A stretch of 64,000 nt of DNA, from NCBI GenBank assembly GCA_937862735.1, contig CALMDH010000243.1:1423-65422 (forward strand), written 5' to 3'. The notes below the pieces were generated by a model. That model did not search any database. It saw nothing but the letters and a program-made list of their open reading frames with translations, and had not been told where the DNA came from. The DNA comes from an uncultured Gammaproteobacteria bacterium. Its GTDB lineage: Bacteria; Pseudomonadota; Gammaproteobacteria; Chromatiales; Chromatiaceae. This document shows, in pieces, positions 16,094 to 26,100 of this stretch. The position numbers and the translations under genes are program-made. Each line of letters begins with the position of its first letter. Positions within the stretch are counted from its first letter, which is position 1.

Positions 16094-16756
16094 ATGCTGC
16101 TCAAGGCCATCATCGACGATCAGGAACTCAGCCTCGAGGTCCCGGAACAAGTCCTACGGCAGGGTCAGGGCTTCTTCGCCAAGCTGGACGCCGACATGGA
16201 CCAGGGCTGGCAGATGAGCCGCGAGTGGGTCGCCCGGCCCAACCAGATCGAGCGCTGCCAGATCGTCGCTGACAAGCTCCTGACCGCCCTGGAAAAGGAG
16301 AACGAGCGGCTGGGCATGCTCATGGCCGGTTACCTGCTCAGCCGCCTGCCCGGACTGGAGGCCGTGACCCTCGACACTCAGGGCGAGGTGCAAAACACCC
16401 TCTTCACCCTCGCCGAGTCCCCAGGCGCGACACCCCTGGGCTCGGCCGTCAGCGGCCCGACCGCCAGCCCACCCCTGTCCCGGGGTGAAGAGGACGCGGC
16501 ACCCCCGGCGGAGACCTCCTTCACCCCCACGCCGGCACCCCGGGGGCTGGACAAATTCCAGGCCCTGGAGCAGGCCGGCAACGACGTCACCCCGGTCTTC
16601 AAGGTCGGCAAGGGCTACCGCTTCTCGGTCTACGATCACGCCAGCGGCCAATGGCTGGACGCCCCCCTGGTCGCCAAGGAGGCCGACGCCGAGCGCCTGC
16701 GCCAGGCGGCCTTCAAGGCGCGCTTCGAGTCCCTGCAGCAACCGCCGGGGGGATAG
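16094..16756 (+). CDS. Hypothetical protein
   Basis: Start moved to the ATG at 16094, preceded by AAGAGGA. Codon usage is GC3-rich like the core genes. No motif recognised. Confidence 0.5.
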   Translation: MLLKAIIDDQELSLEVPEQVLRQGQGFFAKLDADMDQGWQMSREWVARPNQIERCQIVADKLLTALEKENERLGMLMAGYLLSRLPGLEAVTLDTQGEVQNTLFTLAESPGATPLGSAVSGPTASPPLSRGEEDAAPPAETSFTPTPAPRGLDKFQALEQAGNDVTPVFKVGKGYRFSVYDHASGQWLDAPLVAKEADAERLRQAAFKARFESLQQPPGG

Positions 16757-16797
16757 CCATGCCTGGGTGTTCCCCAGATTTCCTATCCGTTTGCTGA

Positions 16798-18408
16798 TCA
16801 GCCTCCGGATTGCTCATGGTCCGCCGGCATGAAAATTGTAATCAACAGCGAACGCGCTCGAGTCATGCCGACGTAGTGGTCCGGGATTGACGCGTCGGGG
16901 TTTATCGGTCGGGGTAGGTCGACCAGGATCACGCATTCGTTCTCCAACCCTTTGAACTGTTTGATCTCGGCAAAGCTGATACCGCCGGGCGGGAAGCTCA
17001 GCAGCGCGTACTCGTCCAGCTCGATTATGTCCGCGGACACCCGGCCAGGTAGCAGCGAGACCGAAGATTCCGCCAATGGCAGTGGCGAGAGGAGGGTTAT
17101 CTCGCTGACTCCAAGACCTCCAGGGCCGGTGAGACGACGCAACTCATCCGCGAGAATGCTTGCTGCTGCCTCGCGATTGGCCGCGTCGCGAACAATCACC
17201 TCTGGGCCATTGCCTGTGCCGCGGCTACCCATATCGGCTCCGAGCAGAGCCTGGATCTCCCCCATAATCTGCAGGGTGTTGCGACAGTTCTTCCGCAGCG
17301 GCAGCGGAGCGGGGTCCGGACAATATGAATGCAGCAGTGCCAGTGCATCCGGGTCCGGCATCCAGTAGCCCGCCTGATTGTTGAAGTCGTGGAAGAAGCA
17401 CCAGCGACCCTGCTCCAGCCCATCCTTCAGAGCACCATTTAGTTGCTCCAGGGTGCTCATGTCCAGCAGATCCTGTCCCTCGTCGACGATCAACGCGTCG
17501 AAGTGGTCCACATGCGCCCTGCGGGCCGCGGTTCGCACGGCTCGGGCCAAACTCACCGTCACGCCAGGGATTGCGAATTTCTTCTCCAGCCAACGTTTTA
17601 ACCAGGGTGACTGGCAGGCGAGCAGGACCTTGCTGCCACTTGCGGACCAACGCCGCGCCAGCTCCAGGGCGAGAAAAGTCTTGCCGGTGCCCGCCCCGCC
17701 ACTGCAAATAACTCGTGCACGGCCTTCGACGAAATCCATCAGAGTCATCTGATCGGCCGTCAGCGACGCGACCCGCTGCTCGAGCCCATCGAGGGTGACA
17801 TGGAGCGGGATGCCGACGTCGAATTCCGGGCGTAGCAAGGCGTTGACGGCGGCAACGGCCTCGTCACCCGCGTCGCGAAGCCTGTGCTCGTCACGACCGC
17901 GCCAGAAGCGGTAGAGCCCCGTCAGCCAGCGCTCCAGGTCGCGCATTTTGCGGAAATCGGCCACCATCATCGGCTCCCACTCGACGCTGGAGATCGTCCA
18001 GTCGCAGTCCGGGAAGACCACGCCATAGCCCCAGGTGAGCTGAGACCACAAGGCTGGCGGCAGCTCGGCCTCGATGCGTTTGCGCAGCGCGTGCATGGCC
18101 GACTCTGCCTGGCTGAACGGACTCCGGTTTAGGCGGTTACGCTCGCCGAATTGATTGACGGTGAACCAATCGCCGGCCTCGCAGCTAATGCGCCCTCCCT
18201 TAACCTCGAGCACCAGGACACCGGCCGGGCCGACGATGACGAAATCGGCCTCGCCGAAGCGGTTCTCCGGATGCCGGGTCAGGTTCATCGAATGGAAGCC
18301 CGTCAGCCTGGGCCCGGAGCCGGTCTCGAACGCCATTCGGAGTCGGTCGAACAGAGCCTTTTCCGCATTGCTCCGGGTCGGGTACGGGGTGGACGGAATC
18401 ATCTTCAT
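16798..18408 (-). CDS. NERD-domain nuclease fused to an SF1 (UvrD/DUF2075-like) helicase
   Basis: 536 aa. The N-terminus (GEADFVIVGPAGVLVLEVKGG) is NERD / PD-(D/E)xK-like. Then Walker A SGGAGTGKT, Walker B ALIVDEGQDL, KNCRNT, KGLENECVILVDL and YVGMTRARSLL, the SF1 C-terminal motifs. It is the last gene of the five-gene operon. Confidence 0.75.
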   Translation of the reverse strand: MKMIPSTPYPTRSNAEKALFDRLRMAFETGSGPRLTGFHSMNLTRHPENRFGEADFVIVGPAGVLVLEVKGGRISCEAGDWFTVNQFGERNRLNRSPFSQAESAMHALRKRIEAELPPALWSQLTWGYGVVFPDCDWTISSVEWEPMMVADFRKMRDLERWLTGLYRFWRGRDEHRLRDAGDEAVAAVNALLRPEFDVGIPLHVTLDGLEQRVASLTADQMTLMDFVEGRARVICSGGAGTGKTFLALELARRWSASGSKVLLACQSPWLKRWLEKKFAIPGVTVSLARAVRTAARRAHVDHFDALIVDEGQDLLDMSTLEQLNGALKDGLEQGRWCFFHDFNNQAGYWMPDPDALALLHSYCPDPAPLPLRKNCRNTLQIMGEIQALLGADMGSRGTGNGPEVIVRDAANREAAASILADELRRLTGPGGLGVSEITLLSPLPLAESSVSLLPGRVSADIIELDEYALLSFPPGGISFAEIKQFKGLENECVILVDLPRPINPDASIPDHYVGMTRARSLLITIFMPADHEQSGG

Positions 18409-18418
18409 TGGTCCGACC

Positions 18419-20029
18419 TCATGGTTGCAGCATGTCCCGAACCCGGGCTTCGAGCTTCGTCGGCACCTCGACGGAGACCAGCTGCCGCAGCAACCGGGCC
18501 GGGTCCACTTCGGTCCGAACGGCCTTCACATCGCCGTCGAGGACCAAGTGCAAACCGCGGCCGTCCACCTGAAGTCGGTAATCGCCCTTGCCAAGGCTGA
18601 TGCGGGTGCGGAGCAGGGCCTGCCAGCCCATTTCGCGGACCAGGGTCAGGGCCGCCTCGCGTTGCTGCTTGCTCCAGTCGGCGTCCCCGGCTGACAGCAG
18701 CTCCCGCAATGGGCGTACCCGCGGTGGTGCTGGGCCCAGTTCCAGTCCGCTGTGCTGCAGCCGGTGGGCCATGGCGGCCATGCGATGGCCCGTGGCGGCT
18801 GCGAGCCCCGGGATGTCCCGCACAGACTGGGGCAGCTCCATCCAACTGCCGCGGGCGGCGAACAGTGCGGCGGCGACCAGCAGGTCCTGCTCGGAGAGCT
18901 GCGTTAATTCCTGCGCGAGCGTCAACAGATCGCCGCACCGGGGGCGCAGAAAGAATAGGATCAGCCCGCGGGACAAGGGTCGCGCATGACGCCCAAGGAG
19001 CTCCGAGACGGTGGCGTCGCCCAGGCCGAGCAGACCCTCCAGGTCCTGGATCAATCGGGCCAGGGCCTCTTGCCATTTGGGTTCGCTCAGCCCTCGGCGC
19101 TCCGTCTCCAGCGCAGCAAGCACAGCCTGATGAGTGTCCGGCGGGCACCATGGCTCGCCGGCGGCAACCATGTCGTCCGCAGCGACCTTGGCGGCGACGA
19201 CGGCCTTGAGGATCTGCGTCAAAAGGCGCGACTGGATCTCGGCCCCCGCATCGGGTTCGGCTCCCGCAGCCCAGAATAGGACCGCACGCAGCAGCGGGTC
19301 CTCGGTACCCTTTCCCTCACCGGAATCGGCCAACAAGGCCGAGGCTCGTACCAGGGCATCACCCCGGTTACCTAGCCCGGCCAACAGCCCGTGCAGCGCA
19401 CCTACCGAGAGAACTCGATGCAGCGCATGGTCGCAAGGCGGCAGCGCGGAGACATCGGGCGGCCATGCGGGGCCGCCGCGGTTGCGGAACAGGCCAACCT
19501 TGATGAGTTGCCGATAGGCAGCCAGGGGTACGTTGGCGTAGTCCGACGCCTGTTCACGGACCCTGGCGCAGACCTCCTTCGACGGGAACAGGATCGCGTC
19601 CAACCAGGTGGCAGGCAATGGCGCCGGCACGAGCAGGATCTGTTCATCGCCATCCGCCTCATCGGGCCAATCGAGGGCATGCATCCGTCCCTGTGAGTCG
19701 ACGGCTTGTACCTCGCCGCGCAACGCCCTCAGGTCCACGCTCGCCGCCAACGCTTCCAGATAGGTCTCCTCCGCAGCTGCCTGGTCCAGGGCCTCTGCCG
19801 GAATCCGCTCGGCGAACAGCGGAATCCATCCCGGCGCCGCTAACAATGGGTCGGCATAGTACTTACGCCCAAAGCCCCGTGGTCCGGTCACCAGGCCGGC
19901 GGCGAGCATGAACATCAGATTGAGCTGATTGCTCACCAGCAACCAGTGGCTGCGTGGCTTGCGGCGCGGCGCTGGAGCCGGCGAGGTCAATTCAAGCTCG
20001 GCAGATTGCTCGGACACGGTCACCTCCAA
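18419..20029 (-). CDS. Hypothetical 536-aa protein, no recognisable domain
   Basis: Long ORF in operon position 4, overlapping the upstream gene by 10 nt and ending 10 nt before the downstream start. It is Ala/Leu-rich and probably helical. I recognise no catalytic motif. Confidence 0.6.
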   Translation of the reverse strand: MEVTVSEQSAELELTSPAPAPRRKPRSHWLLVSNQLNLMFMLAAGLVTGPRGFGRKYYADPLLAAPGWIPLFAERIPAEALDQAAAEETYLEALAASVDLRALRGEVQAVDSQGRMHALDWPDEADGDEQILLVPAPLPATWLDAILFPSKEVCARVREQASDYANVPLAAYRQLIKVGLFRNRGGPAWPPDVSALPPCDHALHRVLSVGALHGLLAGLGNRGDALVRASALLADSGEGKGTEDPLLRAVLFWAAGAEPDAGAEIQSRLLTQILKAVVAAKVAADDMVAAGEPWCPPDTHQAVLAALETERRGLSEPKWQEALARLIQDLEGLLGLGDATVSELLGRHARPLSRGLILFFLRPRCGDLLTLAQELTQLSEQDLLVAAALFAARGSWMELPQSVRDIPGLAAATGHRMAAMAHRLQHSGLELGPAPPRVRPLRELLSAGDADWSKQQREAALTLVREMGWQALLRTRISLGKGDYRLQVDGRGLHLVLDGDVKAVRTEVDPARLLRQLVSVEVPTKLEARVRDMLQP

Positions 20030-21213
20030 CGTCTCAGGATGCCTTCATCGCTCGGCAGGACAGCCTCGATCGGACACGGTCGACCGGCCTGGCGTAGCAG
20101 GATCACCTGATCGCGAGCGCGAGAGATCATCACATAGAACAGGCGTCGCTTGCTGTCCATCCAGGTCTCGTCCTCCAAGTGGCAGGGGTATTGGTCAATA
20201 TCGGCCAGAAACACGCTGTCGAACTCCAGGCCCTTCGCGGCTTGGGCATTAATGACGAAGATCCCGCCCAGGCTGAAGCGATGGTCGCCGTCGGGCTCTT
20301 TACTCGAATAGGTCACGATCCGCGGTGCGCCGTGATCGAGCTGAAGCGCCGGACGGCCAACGGCTTGGCGCAACGCGTCCAGCCAGCGCCGTCGGCAGTT
20401 TTCGGTGGGCGTCAGCACCCCGATCAGCCGCTCAGGATCGCGGTCGACCAGCTTGAGTAGGCGCTCAATCACCGTCTCGAAGCTCAAGCGGCAGCCTTGT
20501 CCGTAGTCCACCAGCACCGGTGTGCTGCAGGGGCGATTACGTGGCTCCGTGACCGGCGGGGTCGCTGGGTCAGGGACGCAAAAGGCGAGCGCAAGGCGGG
20601 CAACGCGGTCGCAGTTACGGTAGTTCTCGGTCAGCACCACACGGTCTGCGGCGCTGATGGCAAGGCTGGTCACGATATCGTGCAGGCTGCTGTTCTCTTC
20701 GGTGATCTGCTGGTTCTGATCGGCGACGACATAGAAATGCTCGTAGCCGAGTTCCAGCAGGGCCTTGTAGAACGCCTTCGGCATGTCTTGCCCTTCGTCG
20801 ATGACGATGTAGGGCGTGATCGGCGGGCGTAGCTCCGCGGGGGCCGACTCCAGTGCGCTGTTCACGCCCTCCCAGTCAATCGCGTAGCTTAGGCCATCCT
20901 TGACCGGGCAGTCCCGCGCCAGGGCGTAGCGAAAAATGCTCTTGAACCGGCGAATCCAGGTGTCCGCGTTCACCGCCCCATCCACCAGCTCCCGACTCGC
21001 CTCCAGAAGGAGCCGGTTGTAGGCTAGAAAGACATAGCGCTGGCCACCCTGGTCGCGATGGTGCCGACGCACCCGCAGCAGGGCCACTACCGATTTCCCA
21101 GTGCCGGGTCCACCGACGATCAGGTGGCAACCGTCCATCGGCAGCATGCGCGCCCGCTCCTGCTCCTTGCTCAGCTCCTGAATTTCCGGGAGCCTCCAGA
21201 CTCGCGCTGCCAT
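20020..21213 (-). CDS. Compact SF1 UvrD-like P-loop ATPase
   Basis: 397 aa. Walker A VGGPGTGKS, Walker B YIVIDEGQDM, ENYRNC, KGLEFDSVFL and YVMISRARDQVIL. At this size it lacks most accessory subdomains of full-length UvrD/Rep helicases. Confidence 0.7.
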   Translation of the reverse strand: MAARVWRLPEIQELSKEQERARMLPMDGCHLIVGGPGTGKSVVALLRVRRHHRDQGGQRYVFLAYNRLLLEASRELVDGAVNADTWIRRFKSIFRYALARDCPVKDGLSYAIDWEGVNSALESAPAELRPPITPYIVIDEGQDMPKAFYKALLELGYEHFYVVADQNQQITEENSSLHDIVTSLAISAADRVVLTENYRNCDRVARLALAFCVPDPATPPVTEPRNRPCSTPVLVDYGQGCRLSFETVIERLLKLVDRDPERLIGVLTPTENCRRRWLDALRQAVGRPALQLDHGAPRIVTYSSKEPDGDHRFSLGGIFVINAQAAKGLEFDSVFLADIDQYPCHLEDETWMDSKRRLFYVMISRARDQVILLRQAGRPCPIEAVLPSDEGILRRWR

Positions 21214-21218
21214 TGGCG

Positions 21219-23183
21219 TCAGTCCTCGCCGGCGAAATCCAGCAACGGGCGGATGGCGCCATTGAGGTCACCGGCGATGAACACCCGGTCCAGCAGCAGG
21301 TTGCCGAATTGGCAGCTAGGCTCTGGTAGCAGGGTGCAGGCGTGACAGGCGGCCCGGTTGAGCTGGCTCGGCCCCTGGCCTTCATGCTCGGCGCATACCG
21401 GGTCCAGAGAGCACCAGTCGGCATGGTCGAAGACGCTGGAGAGCAGGCGCAGAAAGCGGCTCGGCTCGGCCAGCTCCTCAAGTCCGCCGAGGGAGCCGGC
21501 CAGGTCCGGCACCGCAACATAGGCAAGGATGCCGGCCATCGGCGCATCGCCCTCGGCGCAGTAGACGCGCTCGCGGATCGAGGCCGCCGGATAGCCGGCC
21601 TCTGCCTCCAGACGGCGGATCATCAGATGGGCCAGGGTGTGAAGCAGCAGGAAACGGGGCGTGATGGGCAAAGGCGGCTCGTTCACCAGCCTCAGTCCAG
21701 CACGCCGGAAGCGTTGGTCCATGGTCTCGGCGCGCTGGGCCAGCCCCTCTTGGCATTGCCAACGCCGCAATATCACCTCGTTGAGACTGAAGAAGATGCC
21801 TTCGCCGTAAAGCTCGATGGCCGGTAACCAGTCTTTGCTGTTGTCCAGATCCGCGGGCAACCAGCCGCTGCGCAGGGCCGCGGATCTCTCCTCCGTGTTT
21901 GGATGCAGGCCGTCATCAAAGCCCTGCTCGATACGGCTGAAGCCACGGAAGATGCGGACCTCGCGCAGCCGCCTCACCGCCACCAGCTGATTCACCGCAC
22001 TTCGAACGGCGGCAGCCCGATTGGCCCTTTTGTCATGGATCGGCAGGGATCGCAAGCCGTCGGTCCGATGTTCGGTGATGAAGTCCGCGCCTTCATGCTG
22101 ATCAGGAATCGGCACCGTCAGGGCGTGATACTCCTTCTCCGGCAACTGCCCGCGCGTGGCGGTTTGGCCATACAGGGGCCAGCCCTTTTCGATCTCCGCC
22201 AACGCCTCCTCCACCTGCCCCTCGGTGCAGCCGAACTCGTCGGACAGCTCCTTCAGCAGACTCAGGCGGGGCCTCCCTTCGCGAAATCGGTCGAACTTCC
22301 GTCGCGCGGCGCTGTTGCGATAGAGCCGATCCAGCACGCTGCCACGTTCAATCTGGCATTCCGGCGGGATCACTGCTAGGGCCGATTGGACGGTTGGCAG
22401 ATACAAGCGCGGGTCGCTGACCTCCAAGATCGAGAACGGCTGCTTGCTCGGGATGCCGTGCCCGGCCTCCCGCTTCTGCCAGGGTTGCAGGCGGGTGTAG
22501 CGGCCATTGAGCAGCGGCTGGCCAGGGAGGAACGTGCTGGCGCGCTTACGGCAAGTCCGGCATTGCAGTTGCCATCTCCCAGTCGTTGGGTCTCGCTGAA
22601 GGAACAGTTCCGCGTTCGGATTGGTCTTGCGGCACTGCTGAGCCTCTTCCGCAGTGGGATGGGCGAGGAAATGCCACGGCACCTCCTGCAGGCCACCTTC
22701 CGGGTGCACGAGGACCCAGTCGACCTGGCGCAGCCGCGGTTGTGATTCACAACGCAGGCAACGGGGATCCTGGTCCTCCGCCGCCTCCCCGTCGCGTCGC
22801 GAATCCCAGGGTCGATGATGCAACAGGCCACAAGCCGGGCAGCGGGTCCAGGCCGGAAACCGCACCGCGGGTACGCAGATGCCGTCGACCATGTCCTTCT
22901 CCGACAGATGCGCCATCGGTGGCTGGCGCAGGGCCTTGTCATCGAGCCCCAGGGTTGCGCGCAACAGTTCCACGTACCACAGGGGCTCGCCGGCCGGTTC
23001 GCCCTGCTTGTCCGTCCAATAGCTGATGTCCATCACCGTGAACAGAACGTTTTCGGCCCGCACCAGGGCACCGACGCCGCTGTAGCCGAGCAGGTGGGAC
23101 CAGCGTGTTGGGATATGCCGCTTCACAAGATCCGAATGACCGATGTATTTTCGACGTTGCGCATGTTGTGCAACGTCGGCCAT
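21219..23183 (-). CDS. DUF1998-domain protein, DrmB-like
   Basis: 654 aa. The N-terminus has SHLLGYSGVGALVR and Cys-pair zinc-ribbon motifs (CPACG...CLRCES, CRTCRKR). The C-terminus (FLLLHTLAHLMIRRLE...DPVCAEH...ACHACTLLPEPSCQFGNLLLDR) is the DUF1998 signature. The annotated ATG overlaps the upstream gene by 61 nt, so the exact start is uncertain. Confidence 0.8.
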   Translation of the reverse strand: MADVAQHAQRRKYIGHSDLVKRHIPTRWSHLLGYSGVGALVRAENVLFTVMDISYWTDKQGEPAGEPLWYVELLRATLGLDDKALRQPPMAHLSEKDMVDGICVPAVRFPAWTRCPACGLLHHRPWDSRRDGEAAEDQDPRCLRCESQPRLRQVDWVLVHPEGGLQEVPWHFLAHPTAEEAQQCRKTNPNAELFLQRDPTTGRWQLQCRTCRKRASTFLPGQPLLNGRYTRLQPWQKREAGHGIPSKQPFSILEVSDPRLYLPTVQSALAVIPPECQIERGSVLDRLYRNSAARRKFDRFREGRPRLSLLKELSDEFGCTEGQVEEALAEIEKGWPLYGQTATRGQLPEKEYHALTVPIPDQHEGADFITEHRTDGLRSLPIHDKRANRAAAVRSAVNQLVAVRRLREVRIFRGFSRIEQGFDDGLHPNTEERSAALRSGWLPADLDNSKDWLPAIELYGEGIFFSLNEVILRRWQCQEGLAQRAETMDQRFRRAGLRLVNEPPLPITPRFLLLHTLAHLMIRRLEAEAGYPAASIRERVYCAEGDAPMAGILAYVAVPDLAGSLGGLEELAEPSRFLRLLSSVFDHADWCSLDPVCAEHEGQGPSQLNRAACHACTLLPEPSCQFGNLLLDRVFIAGDLNGAIRPLLDFAGED

Positions 23184-26100
23184 TCACCTTTGTGCCGGTC
23201 GTCGTGGGCGTAGAGCAGACATAGGCCGCGCCTGTCGCGATTGGAACCCTTGTAGCAGAGGGCCTGCTCCTGCTTGGCGGCGCGTGCCGCCAAGGCGGCC
23301 CACTCTCTGACCAGGCGGTGGAGATCGGCCTCGGTCACGTCGCCGCGCTCCGGGTCTGCGTCGCGGCAGCGTTGGATCAGCAGCTCGATGACCTTGGCCG
23401 TCTCGGGTTTGGTCGGGTCGAAGGACGCCGCGCGGGCGTTGGCGGTGAGGTCATCGCTCGCGTGGCGCACAGAAATCACCAGGGCGGCATGCAGGGCACG
23501 TCGACGGGCTTGATAGGTGAAGGGCGTGACGCTGGTGGGCTCGACAAAGCGGTAGAAGGCCTCGTGATAGGCGCGGAAGCTCTCGTAGTGGGACAAGCTG
23601 CGGGCCTGGTCACGGTAGTAGTTGGTGATGACGATGCCGGGCACGGCGCCACGGCCGACCCGGGAGCTGGCCTGGATGTATTCGGCGGTGGTCAGCGGCT
23701 GGCCGTTGATGATCATCGCCGCCAGCCGGGAGACGTCCAGTCCCACCGAGATCATGTTGGTCGCGAGGGCGAGGTCCAGGGCCTCGAGGTCGTCGCGGGA
23801 TCGCGCCAGCCGCGCGAAGGCACGGGCGTTCTCGTCGGCAGACATGTGGCTGGTCAGGTGCGCGATCCGATCCGGCTCGACGAGTTGGCCGCGCCAGGGT
23901 TCGGGCCCCAGACCGGAGCCACCTTCGACGTCGGCGGGATCCTTTAGCTCCAGCCATTCTCGACGCAGGCGATCGATTCCATTCTCGATATCGCGCAGGG
24001 CATTACGGCTGACGCCGACGCCCTTCAGGCTGCCGTGGTAGATGAGAAGGGTCCACCAGGCATCGAGCAGGGCCTCGCGGTCGGCCGTTGCGTTGCCGAA
24101 CAAGGCCTCCGGTGCGGCAAGCAGTGCGGCGGCGAGCGGTGCCAGGCAACGTTGGCGATTGCGGGCGGGGGCCAGATAGCCAATGTAGAGCCGGCCGGGC
24201 TTGTCGTCCGTGGCGGGCACGGTGCGGGAAAAATAAGCGTCTTCGGCATTCAGGCCCGGCGGCGGGAAGATCGCGGCCTCGCGGTCATCTTGACCATCGC
24301 CATAGAGCCGCTGGCGACCGTAGAGGCGCTCCACCTGCTCGGCGGCCATCCGGATGGTCGCGGTGGAGGCGACATATTTCGGGTGCATGCCGCGTGCCCG
24401 CAGCACGGTGTCCAGCCCGGCCTCGTACAGGCCGGCGATGGAGCCCAAGGCGCTTGCAATCAGGTGCAGCTCGTCCTGGATGATCAGTTCTGGCGGCCGA
24501 TTCCCGTCGCGACCGAAGAAGGCCGAGGTATCCTCCTCCCAGGCCAGGCGGGCGAACTTGTCGATGGTTGCGAGCAACAGGGTCGGAGGTGTCTTGTAGA
24601 GGGCTGAGTCGACGACATTGCAGGGCAGGAGGCCGTCGTCCGAGACACCGAACGCGCAATCGCGGTTCGTGCAGCGAAAGTGGAAGTGCTGGTCTCCGGC
24701 ATCGAAGCCCTTACGCAGGTCAAGCGGCGATTCACACCAGGGGCATTTCTCCAGCACCAGCAGGCTCGGCGGTTGGGTCTCCCGGTTCTCGATAGCCTGC
24801 TCCAAAAGTTGCTTGGCGTCCTCGAATCGGTTGGGGCTCAATGCTCCACCGACCCAGAGCCCTAGCGTGACGGGTTCGTCTCCGAGCAATTTGGGCTGCT
24901 CCCGGCGCATCAGTTCCATGGCGCAGATGAGCCGGGCGGCGCGCAGGAACTGGTCTTTAGTCAACAGCCGCAGGGTATAGCGCATGAGCACCGTGGTACC
25001 GCCGCCGCTGGCTTTGTAACGAAGCCGCCGATACCAGATGACGAAGGCCATCAGTCCAAGATAAGCCTCGGTCTTGCCACCCCCAGTAGGGAACCAGATC
25101 AGGTCCAGGATATCGCGCTCCGGAGCGTCCTCGTCGGCCGCAGACTTGATGGCGAGCAGCAGGAAAGCGAGCTGGAATGGGCGCCAAGTCGGCGCCTTGT
25201 CATTGCGCTGTGCTTGCCGCTTCTTGGCGCCCCCTTGCATCAGGAATGCCTGGCGCATCTGGCGGGCCATCGCCAGATTGGCGAGGCCGAAGGCGCGAGC
25301 AGCAGTGTCGTCTTCACGAAGCAGGTCGACGCCGGCCTGCATACGTTCGGCGGCCCGACGCATGCGCGCCACCACGCGCTCGCCGCTGGGTCTCAGGTCG
25401 GGACCAAGGGTCGCGCACTCTGCCTGTTGTGCATCGATCCATTGACCATAGCAAGCGACGAAGCGGTCAAGCGCGGCGCAGATCGCATCCCGATGCGTGA
25501 GAATGCCTGCCAGGTCATCGACCCTCAGTGCGGCGCCATCCGCCTTGCCCGCCTCCGGATCGACCCTGGGCACCTCCACGCAGGGCAGGAATTCGGTGCG
25601 GATGCTAGTGACCCGACCATCCGTCAGGCTCCAATCCACAGCGGCACCGTGGCCGACCGCATAGATGACATGATTGCGATAGCGCAGCTCCAGCTCACGC
25701 TCCTCGTCGCTCAACAATGCCAGGTCCGTGCGCGGATAAGGGCCGACAATGCCTTTAAGTACCTGGCACGTAAGTTCGACCCCAAACAAGGCGCTTGCAT
25801 CAGCATGCTGCTCGTCGCGTCTGTCGCCGGGTCCGCCACCGGTACCTGCGTCGTCGATGCGCTGGGTATTGCTAAGGGAGATAGTGACGAGCCAACCATT
25901 GATTTGGCGGCGCCACAGGACGAACAGCTCGGCCCGGCCGTCGAAGACTGGTTGGCGCAGTGGCGGACTCCGGGGGCAAGTCGGTGCGGCGATGGTAATG
26001 GCCTCATTGCCGCCGCTGCCGAACGGCCTTGGCATCCAGGTCTCGGAGGTGAATCTTCCGGCGGCATCGCGCTCCTCACCGCGGTCGTAAACGACCGCCG

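Follow-up and report, generated by a model that had tools for sequence, protein, structure and literature searches.

A predicted DarT- and ARH-like protein in a methylase-free DISARM-like defence cassette

The DrmAB core of the anti-phage system DISARM is met again in many cassettes that have yet to be named. One gene set with such a core occupies positions 16798-26464 of the window analysed here, a 64,000-nucleotide stretch of contig CALMDH010000243.1 (assembly GCA_937862735.1, positions 1,423 to 65,422 of the forward strand) from an uncultured Gammaproteobacteria bacterium of the Chromatiaceae. It comprises five co-directional genes on the minus strand, and the question raised by the locus is what the fourth of them, located at 18419-20029 and hereafter called gene X, contributes to the set. 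A sequence-only reading had presented its product as a protein with no recognisable domain, which might serve as a specificity, sensor or scaffold subunit in place of the missing DISARM components. As regards sequence models this description stood, X having no match among the Pfam, NCBIfam, PADLOC and PHROG models; a profile search of PDB sequences also returned nothing meaningful. At the level of the fold it did not stand, as the predicted structure contains a DarT-like and an ARH-like domain. The interpretation preferred here, to which about an even chance is given on the basis of sequence comparisons and structure models, is that X derives from DarT and ARH ancestors and would act as a non-catalytic sensor or adaptor subunit of a DISARM-like cassette.

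The model of X, built with AlphaFold2 on a 30-sequence alignment, was confident (pLDDT 89.1, pTM 0.88) and predicts a protein of three parts, namely a DarT-like ADP-ribosyltransferase (ART) fold, an ARH-like ADP-ribosylhydrolase fold and a small C-terminal domain. The first part covers residues ~20-185 (19475-19972; this and all other features below lie on the minus strand). The Foldseek search of an AlphaFold model that had been proposed as a check placed DarT first (7omv, E 6.5e-5, probability 1.0; also 7omx, 7omw, 7omy, 7yk3 and 8baq), with ARH3 and the ARH-type immunity protein Tri1 ranking after it, so X is not domain-less. In VIA-align, a search independent of Foldseek, the match of X to DarT reached Z 11.3 with 157 residues aligned and a root mean square deviation of 3.4; 7omu, 8baq, 7yk3 and Tpt1 (Z 8.9) scored lower. 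The independent model of X held in the ESM Atlas matched DarT clusters over residues 20-187. The second part, a helical domain resembling ADP-ribosylglycohydrolases, spans residues 202-428 (18746-19426) and was matched by VIA-align to ARH3 (6g1p, Z 14.0, 206 residues aligned), the ART-ARH immunity protein 8za7 (Z 13.0), MJ1187 (1t5j, 12.9), 2cwc (11.9) and Tri1 (6dre, 11.2). Since both domains point to ADP-ribosylation families, with several independent members each, a chance match is unlikely.

The C-terminal domain, residues 430-536 (18422-18742), is predicted to consist of helices and a four-stranded beta-meander. When these 107 residues were modelled alone, the pLDDT was 93.7. The best VIA-align score of the domain was Z 4.5, to the SAP-like helices of FAN1 and PIAS, and no Foldseek match reached E 0.001. 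Its conserved residues are W469, T475, G482 and G499.

Sequence-level signs of these folds were also sought in Pfam scans of 39 diverse members of the X family at E values up to 10. Sub-threshold matches to 2CompART (PF22546), an ADP-ribosyltransferase domain, were obtained for 10 of the 39 relatives, with a best E of 1.4e-5, and none for X itself. Together with the two folds, these matches speak against the earlier impression that nothing nucleotide-related was visible in the protein. The cut-off of PF22546 is 27 bits, and a divergent member of the cassette family (L081) scored 22.3 bits over profile positions 2-101. Among 300 genomes of the class no PF22546 member above the cut-off was detected, the only sub-threshold ones being L081 and L082, the latter a weak match with three internal stops. 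A literature search on the name 2CompART gave nothing relevant. The DarT model (PF14487) did not match X at E up to 10 and matched one of the 39 relatives at E 0.21; the ADP-ribosylglycohydrolase model (PF03747) matched none of the 39.

The residues of the ART-like domain were compared with canonical DarT sequences from 19 loci by hhalign in local mode, and column frequencies were taken from an alignment of 225 X sequences; DarT residues are numbered as in Thermus DarT. The alignments of the X profile to the DarT profile and to the DarT of a DarHTG-type locus described below (L163) were weak overall (E 0.004 and 0.036), although local motifs were clear in spite of these scores. The most conserved motif of the X family, W-x-L-x-(T/S)-N-x-L-N-L...A-G-L (residues 29-46; 19892-19945), lies in the predicted β1-α1 element, where its DarT counterpart is Y-H-x-T-H-x-x-N-L...G-G-L. 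A loop with the motif G-F-G-x-K-Y-Y-x-D (residues 52-60; 19850-19876), which contains K56 and D60, stands in the place of the R51-bearing loop of DarT and is about 17 residues shorter. Further on, the strand and motif (E/D)-x-h-L-L-V-P-A-P-L-P...I-x-F (residues 129-148; 19586-19645) corresponds to Q-A-E-h-L-L..P-I-P..I..I.V of DarT, and W-I-P-L-F of X aligns to V-P-F-Y-F. The hydrophobic-looking N-terminal segment remarked upon in the sequence-only reading turned out to be strand β1 and helix α1 of the ART fold, modelled with a pLDDT of about 96. A membrane-segment reading of residues 28-50 was ruled out on the same ground.

In DarT, H13 is an NAD-binding residue, T15 and N19 contact the adenosine ribose of NAD+, Y71 stacks on the nicotinamide and E160 is catalytic (PMC9967889). 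The position of H13 corresponds to L31 of X, where family members carry L, F, M, Y or I (mainly the first three), with no H or R in the 225 sequences. T15 and N19 are represented by T/S33 (96%) and N37 (97%), and Y71 by F72 (F in 96% and Y in 2%). E160 aligns, with low confidence, to I131, a position occupied by A, V, L, I or M and hydrophobic in all 225 sequences; the sole acidic position nearby, E129, is acidic in 73% of them. The only fully invariant residue of X is D60 (225/225), and K56 (95%), N34 (94%), E87 (92%) and N166 (97%) are nearly fixed. With 18 positions conserved in at least 90% of the sequences, the ART-like domain shows the strongest conservation of the protein, and the alignment points to a strongly conserved new polar site within it. 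X therefore resembles DarT (PF14487; PDB 7OMV-7OMY, 8BAQ, 7YK3) in the fold, the β1-α1 motif, the counterparts of T15 and N19, the aromatic residue at Y71 and the P-x-P...I..I motif after the ARTT region, whereas it differs in the L/F/M at H13, the hydrophobic residue at E160, the shorter R51 loop and the missing match to the DarT model.

The ARH-like domain shows a comparable picture. The Asp of the ARH motif G-D-A-L-G corresponds to position 211 of X, where all 225 sequences have G or A; the D-D position corresponds to position 264, acidic in 67%. D382 alone is kept from the D-T-D-T motif (96% acidic) and is followed by hydrophobic residues; this placement comes from our own motif comparison, the profile alignment having put the region elsewhere. 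The conserved polar residues of the domain are mainly Arg (R354, R362, R393, R/K404 and R416), and the stretch of residues 226-300 is hypervariable, with many insertions. When the X profile was aligned to the single DarG3 sequence of L163, the ARH parts did not align. Compared with ARH/DraG proteins (PF03747; ARH3 6G1P, Tri1 6DRE, 8ZA7), the domain shares the helical fold (Z 11-14, ~190-206 residues aligned) but is smaller (~227 residues), has degenerate metal-ligand motifs, is Arg-rich and lacks a PF03747 match. Across the alignment, the canonical catalytic residues of both enzymes thus appear to be absent family-wide, and their loss is not a decay in one lineage. This pattern speaks against labelling X outright as an enzyme that ADP-ribosylates DNA.

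The gene itself was delimited as had been described. The open reading frame (ORF) of 536 codons runs from a TTG at 20029 to the TGA stop at 18419-18421; the TTG overlaps the TGA stop (20020-20022) of the upstream SF1 ATPase gene by 10 nt, and the X stop lies 10 nt ahead of the NERD-helicase gene, which starts with an ATG at 18408. The ORF list and both junction sequences agree on this. A GTG at 20017, 2 nt past the ATPase stop, is the likelier start judging from the sequence and would give a protein of 532 residues; it is preferred because a Shine-Dalgarno-like GGAGG (20023-20027), located within the last codons of the ATPase gene, lies 5 nt upstream of it. The 532-residue form is also stored in a public protein collection (P0001, 100% identical) and in the ESM Atlas. 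With either start, X is tightly coupled to its neighbour genes. Long shadow ORFs overlie the genes of X and of the NERD-helicase, either in a different frame or on the opposite strand, for example at 18405-19151 (minus strand), and one family of them clusters across 43 related loci; such ORFs are expected in DNA of 66% G+C and are not genes.

The conservation of X showed that its ORF is a real gene, far beyond chance. A word-indexed search found 275 homologues, nearly all of 515-550 residues and none of them named, and 628 clusters at 50% identity came up when 1.84 billion cluster representatives were searched with a profile. Intact frames were present in 80 genome loci at 32-61% identity, so the conservation across homologous loci named beforehand as a check on the ORF was found. 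These loci belong to Gamma-, Beta- and Alphaproteobacteria, Desulfobacterota, Acidobacteriota, Chloroflexota, Binatia, Verrucomicrobiota and one Clostridia metagenome-assembled genome (MAG). The source genome carries a single copy, and homologues were present in 11 of 151 genomes from its order, a patchy occurrence typical of mobile defence genes. No relatives were matched on plasmids (tblastn) or on IMG/VR viral contigs, and no homologue was found in any other conserved gene context. X evolves fastest of the five operon proteins, with a mean identity of 39.6% against 46.6-50.3% for the others.

Several homologues depart from the usual architecture. P0205, P0215, P0222, P0227 and P0228 have an N-terminal extension of 100-220 residues, in which a short helix-turn-helix-like segment followed by a low-complexity linker can be seen by eye; if real, this segment suggests contact with DNA. 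P0236 (761 residues) combines, within one reading frame, a C-terminal piece of DrmA, the last third of X and the greater part of the NERD-helicase; either it derives from the cassette by deletion or it is an artefact of assembly. No fused forms longer than 939 residues were found, which is weak evidence, and shorter matches were mostly fragments on short contigs.

The operon in which X is embedded begins with a DrmA-type YprA-family SF2 helicase of 1113 residues (23123-26464; PADLOC DrmA E 4.7e-199, NCBIfam DISARM_DrmAS 822.6 bits, below the equivalog cut-off of 950). It continues with a DrmB protein of 654 residues carrying OB-CON-DUF1998/MZB domains (21219-23183; NCBIfam DrmB_fam 316.8 bits with a cut-off of 240, PADLOC DrmB E 1.2e-54) and a compact UvrD-like SF1 ATPase of 397 residues, referred to as SF1c (20020-21213; Pfam UvrD_C and AAA_19, PADLOC GajB). 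Downstream of X, the last gene encodes a 536-residue protein with a NERD nuclease domain of the PD-(D/E)xK type and an SF1 helicase (16798-18408; Pfam NERD E 2.1e-9 and AAA_30, PADLOC RTasNERD-Hel E 3.2e-45).

The five window proteins were mapped onto the 80 loci, 70 of which had enough upstream and 76 enough downstream DNA to be counted. Of the 70 testable loci, which come from many phyla, 66 kept the order DrmA-DrmB-SF1c-X, and the NERD-helicase followed X in 55 of 76. X is thus a fixed core subunit of the cassette, more constant than the NERD-helicase, which agrees with the proposal that it belongs to the operon and is no housekeeping protein. All other neighbouring ORFs in the 80 loci were clustered, and no further gene recurred beside the cassette, neither a methyltransferase nor a nuclease of the PLD type. 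DrmA-DrmB-SF1c-X, usually with a NERD-helicase, is a widespread, methylase-free DISARM-like defence cassette, for which no published description was found in a literature search. Four-gene cassettes without the NERD-helicase (L034, L036-L039, L043, L044, L049, L051-L053, L056, L064, L067, L074 and L075) came mostly from Acidobacteriota, Binatia and Chloroflexota, with some from Proteobacteria, and nothing conserved stood downstream of X in its place. One locus from an alphaproteobacterial MAG (L045) carries X, an SF1 ATPase of which no more than the first 224 residues are present, and a 546-residue ORF where DrmA and DrmB would be expected; it may be a disrupted cassette.

Among known systems, the closest parallel to the SF1c-X pair is found in DarHTG (Liu-DS3; Nucleic Acids Res 2026), which consists of an essential UvrD-like helicase without a 2B domain (DarH), an active DarT and an ARH-like antitoxin (DarG3) and which alone protects E. 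coli from T4, T5, T7 and SSL_2009a (PMC13069673). Its defence needs ATP binding by the helicase and catalysis by DarT, an active-site mutant of which abolishes it (PMC13069673). The cassette repeats its order of a compact UvrD-like helicase, a DarT fold and an ARH fold. For direct comparison, a DarHTG-type locus from Desulfobacterota (L163, 2989-6846, minus strand) was used, which encodes a DarH-like protein of 466 residues, a DarT of 236 residues with canonical H-x-T, Y and Q-A-E motifs, and a DarG3-like protein of 601 residues with an ADP_ribosyl_GH domain (PF03747, E 4.6e-39) and a C-terminal glyoxalase/VOC domain. No mention of an ARH-glyoxalase/VOC fusion was noticed in the DarHTG paper (PMC13069673). 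No DrmAB genes were present within the 10 kb examined at L163. SF1c-like neighbours of DarT were seen at none of 24 loci in Pseudomonadota, the phylum of the source organism, and at one of 31 in Desulfobacterota, namely L163. SF1c and the DarH-like helicase of L163 share 28% identity (BLASTP E 2e-13).

The differences from DarHTG are nevertheless considerable. X unites the T and G parts in a single 532-residue protein with an extra C-terminal domain; DarT and DarG3 of L163 keep their catalytic residues and pass the Pfam models, whereas X does neither; and the SF1c-X pair is embedded between DrmAB and the NERD-helicase, whereas DarHTG stands alone. With DISARM classes 1 and 2 (Ofir et al. 2018) the cassette shares the core of a split DrmA helicase and DrmB (DUF1998), supported by strong model matches, but it has the SF1 ATPase, X and the NERD-helicase in place of DrmC, DrmM, DrmD or DrmE. 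None of DrmC (PLD), DrmMI/DrmMII and DrmD/DrmE was detected in the window or recurred near the cassette in the 80 loci. The cassette and X together combine known kinds, a DISARM-like core and a DarHTG-like module. A survey of the YprA family names ARMADA, BRIGADE and TALON, along with numerous DISARM-like classes still to be characterized (10.1101/2025.09.15.676423); ADP-ribosyl domains are unmentioned in it, and TALON, its only system with a NERD domain, is a different cassette. The McrBC-linked 'DISARM-like' cassette of an earlier paper appears to be the one later named ARMADA. A further parallel is offered by the PARP domain of PARP13/ZAP, an ART fold that is under selection without the H-Y-E triad in an antiviral protein; no sequence relation to X has been shown, and its fold match to X was weak (4x52, Z 4.5).

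In the interpretation preferred here, X would have descended from a DarT/ARH toxin-antitoxin pair that fused and then lost its transferase and hydrolase chemistry. It would retain a cleft for an adenosine-ribose-type ligand or nucleotide, or for single-stranded DNA (ssDNA), to which the Arg-rich ARH-like domain and the C-terminal domain would add further binding surfaces. SF1c and X would pair up as DarH does with DarT, and X would detect or retain what DrmAB and the SF1 motor produce, coupling DNA sensing by DrmAB to an effector. Where its gene is present, the NERD nuclease-helicase would be this effector and would receive the signal from X. The DrmAB complex of DISARM, the structure of which was published by Bravo et al. 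in 2022, is reported to load onto ssDNA and to be auto-inhibited until DNA enters. The sensor or adaptor role fits because the canonical catalytic residues are lost, and in this respect the earlier idea of a sensor or scaffold gained partial support, its premise of a domain-less protein apart. ART folds with such degenerate triads, that of PARP13 for example, are generally regarded as inactive.

Several points weigh against this interpretation. Tpt1, an active enzyme of the ART fold, is likewise hydrophobic at the third position of the triad (PMC9967889), so the loss of the Glu is no proof that X is inactive. The counterpart of E160 was, moreover, placed with low confidence from the two weak hhalign alignments. 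The concentration of the strongest conservation in the ART cleft would suit binding and catalysis equally well, and in the quarter of loci without a NERD-helicase the effector could be X itself. Descent from a DarHTG-type module would be based on shared folds and gene order, and the similarity of SF1c to DarH is no higher than its PADLOC GajB score (~58 bits each), which suggests a likeness that is real but not specific.

The most serious competitor, which we consider rather improbable, is that X is an active non-canonical ADP-ribosyltransferase in which D60, K56, N34 and E87 are used instead of H-Y-E. The helicases would then unwind the invading DNA, the DarT-like domain would modify ssDNA or, in the manner of Tpt1, a DNA or RNA end, and the ARH-like domain would hold it in check or gate it, like an antitoxin. 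Such activity would be in line with the action of DarT on ssDNA and its requirement for the helicase in DarHTG (PMC13069673), with the retention of the adenosine-ribose contacts (T/S33 and N37) and of the stacking aromatic residue F72, and with the invariance of D60 among the 18 highly conserved positions of the domain. Tpt1, which functions with its hydrophobic third triad residue, is itself among the fold matches, and the loci without a nuclease gene would be left with X as the acting component. However, neither H nor R ever occupies the first triad position and the Glu position is hydrophobic throughout; the ARH-like domain also lacks its metal ligands, as expected if no toxic activity remains to be reversed, and the family is missed by the DarT model of Pfam. 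A bolder version, which seems unlikely, is that the cassette embodies a novel form of helicase-driven immunity, in which a triad-less relative of DarT carries out chemistry with the new set N34/K56/D60/E87, such as adding ADP-ribose to unwound phage ssDNA or DNA ends, or else reads NAD+ or ADP-ribose-type signals that license the nuclease, so that ADP-ribose biology would replace methylation in a DISARM-type system.

The degeneration of both active sites would also suit a purely structural, ligand-free scaffold bridging DrmAB, the SF1 ATPase and the NERD-helicase. Inactive ARH-like structural subunits do occur among the fold matches (8xks_Q of the Orf2971-FtsHi complex and 6sga_FP of the mitoribosome assemblosome), and the high pTM describes a rigid, tightly packed multi-domain body. 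This role is nonetheless quite unlikely in our view, for the best-kept polar residues lie at the positions of the NAD+ pocket of DarT (T/S33, N37 and F72), with N34, K56 and D60 near them in sequence; a pure scaffold would rather conserve surface patches, and the cleft residues are unchanging although X evolves faster than the other four proteins. That SF1c and X form an independent DarHTG-like module merely adjoining DrmAB and the NERD-helicase in a defence island is very improbable. DarHTG works alone in E. coli (PMC13069673), DrmAB was absent from the vicinity of L163, and L045 carries X and a partial SF1c without DrmAB. Nevertheless, the gene order is fixed in nearly all testable loci of distant phyla, with genes that overlap or abut, X was met in no other conserved context, and genes that share an island by chance do not keep their synteny.

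The cassette is of interest as a DrmAB core that is paired with a protein apparently built from both halves of a DNA ADP-ribosylation toxin-antitoxin pair, with the usual active sites lost. If X is a sensor or adaptor, a larger immune machine would have recruited a toxin-antitoxin module as a regulatory subunit; an active X would mean a novel mode of catalysis within the ART superfamily, and DISARM-like systems would gain a new effector. Its mechanism is testable by point mutants. The family, with hundreds of members spread over many phyla, lacks a Pfam, NCBIfam or PADLOC model, and defence finders that depend on such models would leave it unnamed.

Metagenomes of wastewater, sludge and freshwater sediment from 15 studies contained near-identical copies of the operon (window 16500-26700). 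The metatranscriptome contigs were short and thin, four runs (two samples from two studies) covering parts of the operon and two contigs spanning the ATPase/X junction (19961-20137 and 19834-20078); they give a weak hint of transcription, as carry-over of DNA is possible. At the upstream end of the operon, drmA and drmB overlap (window 23123-23183) by ~57-61 nt, and an overlap of the same size was observed in many loci (L001 6862-6919, L002 3812-3869 and L005 6859-6916, among others), so that it is probably a conserved feature of the cassette and not the product of a miscalled start.

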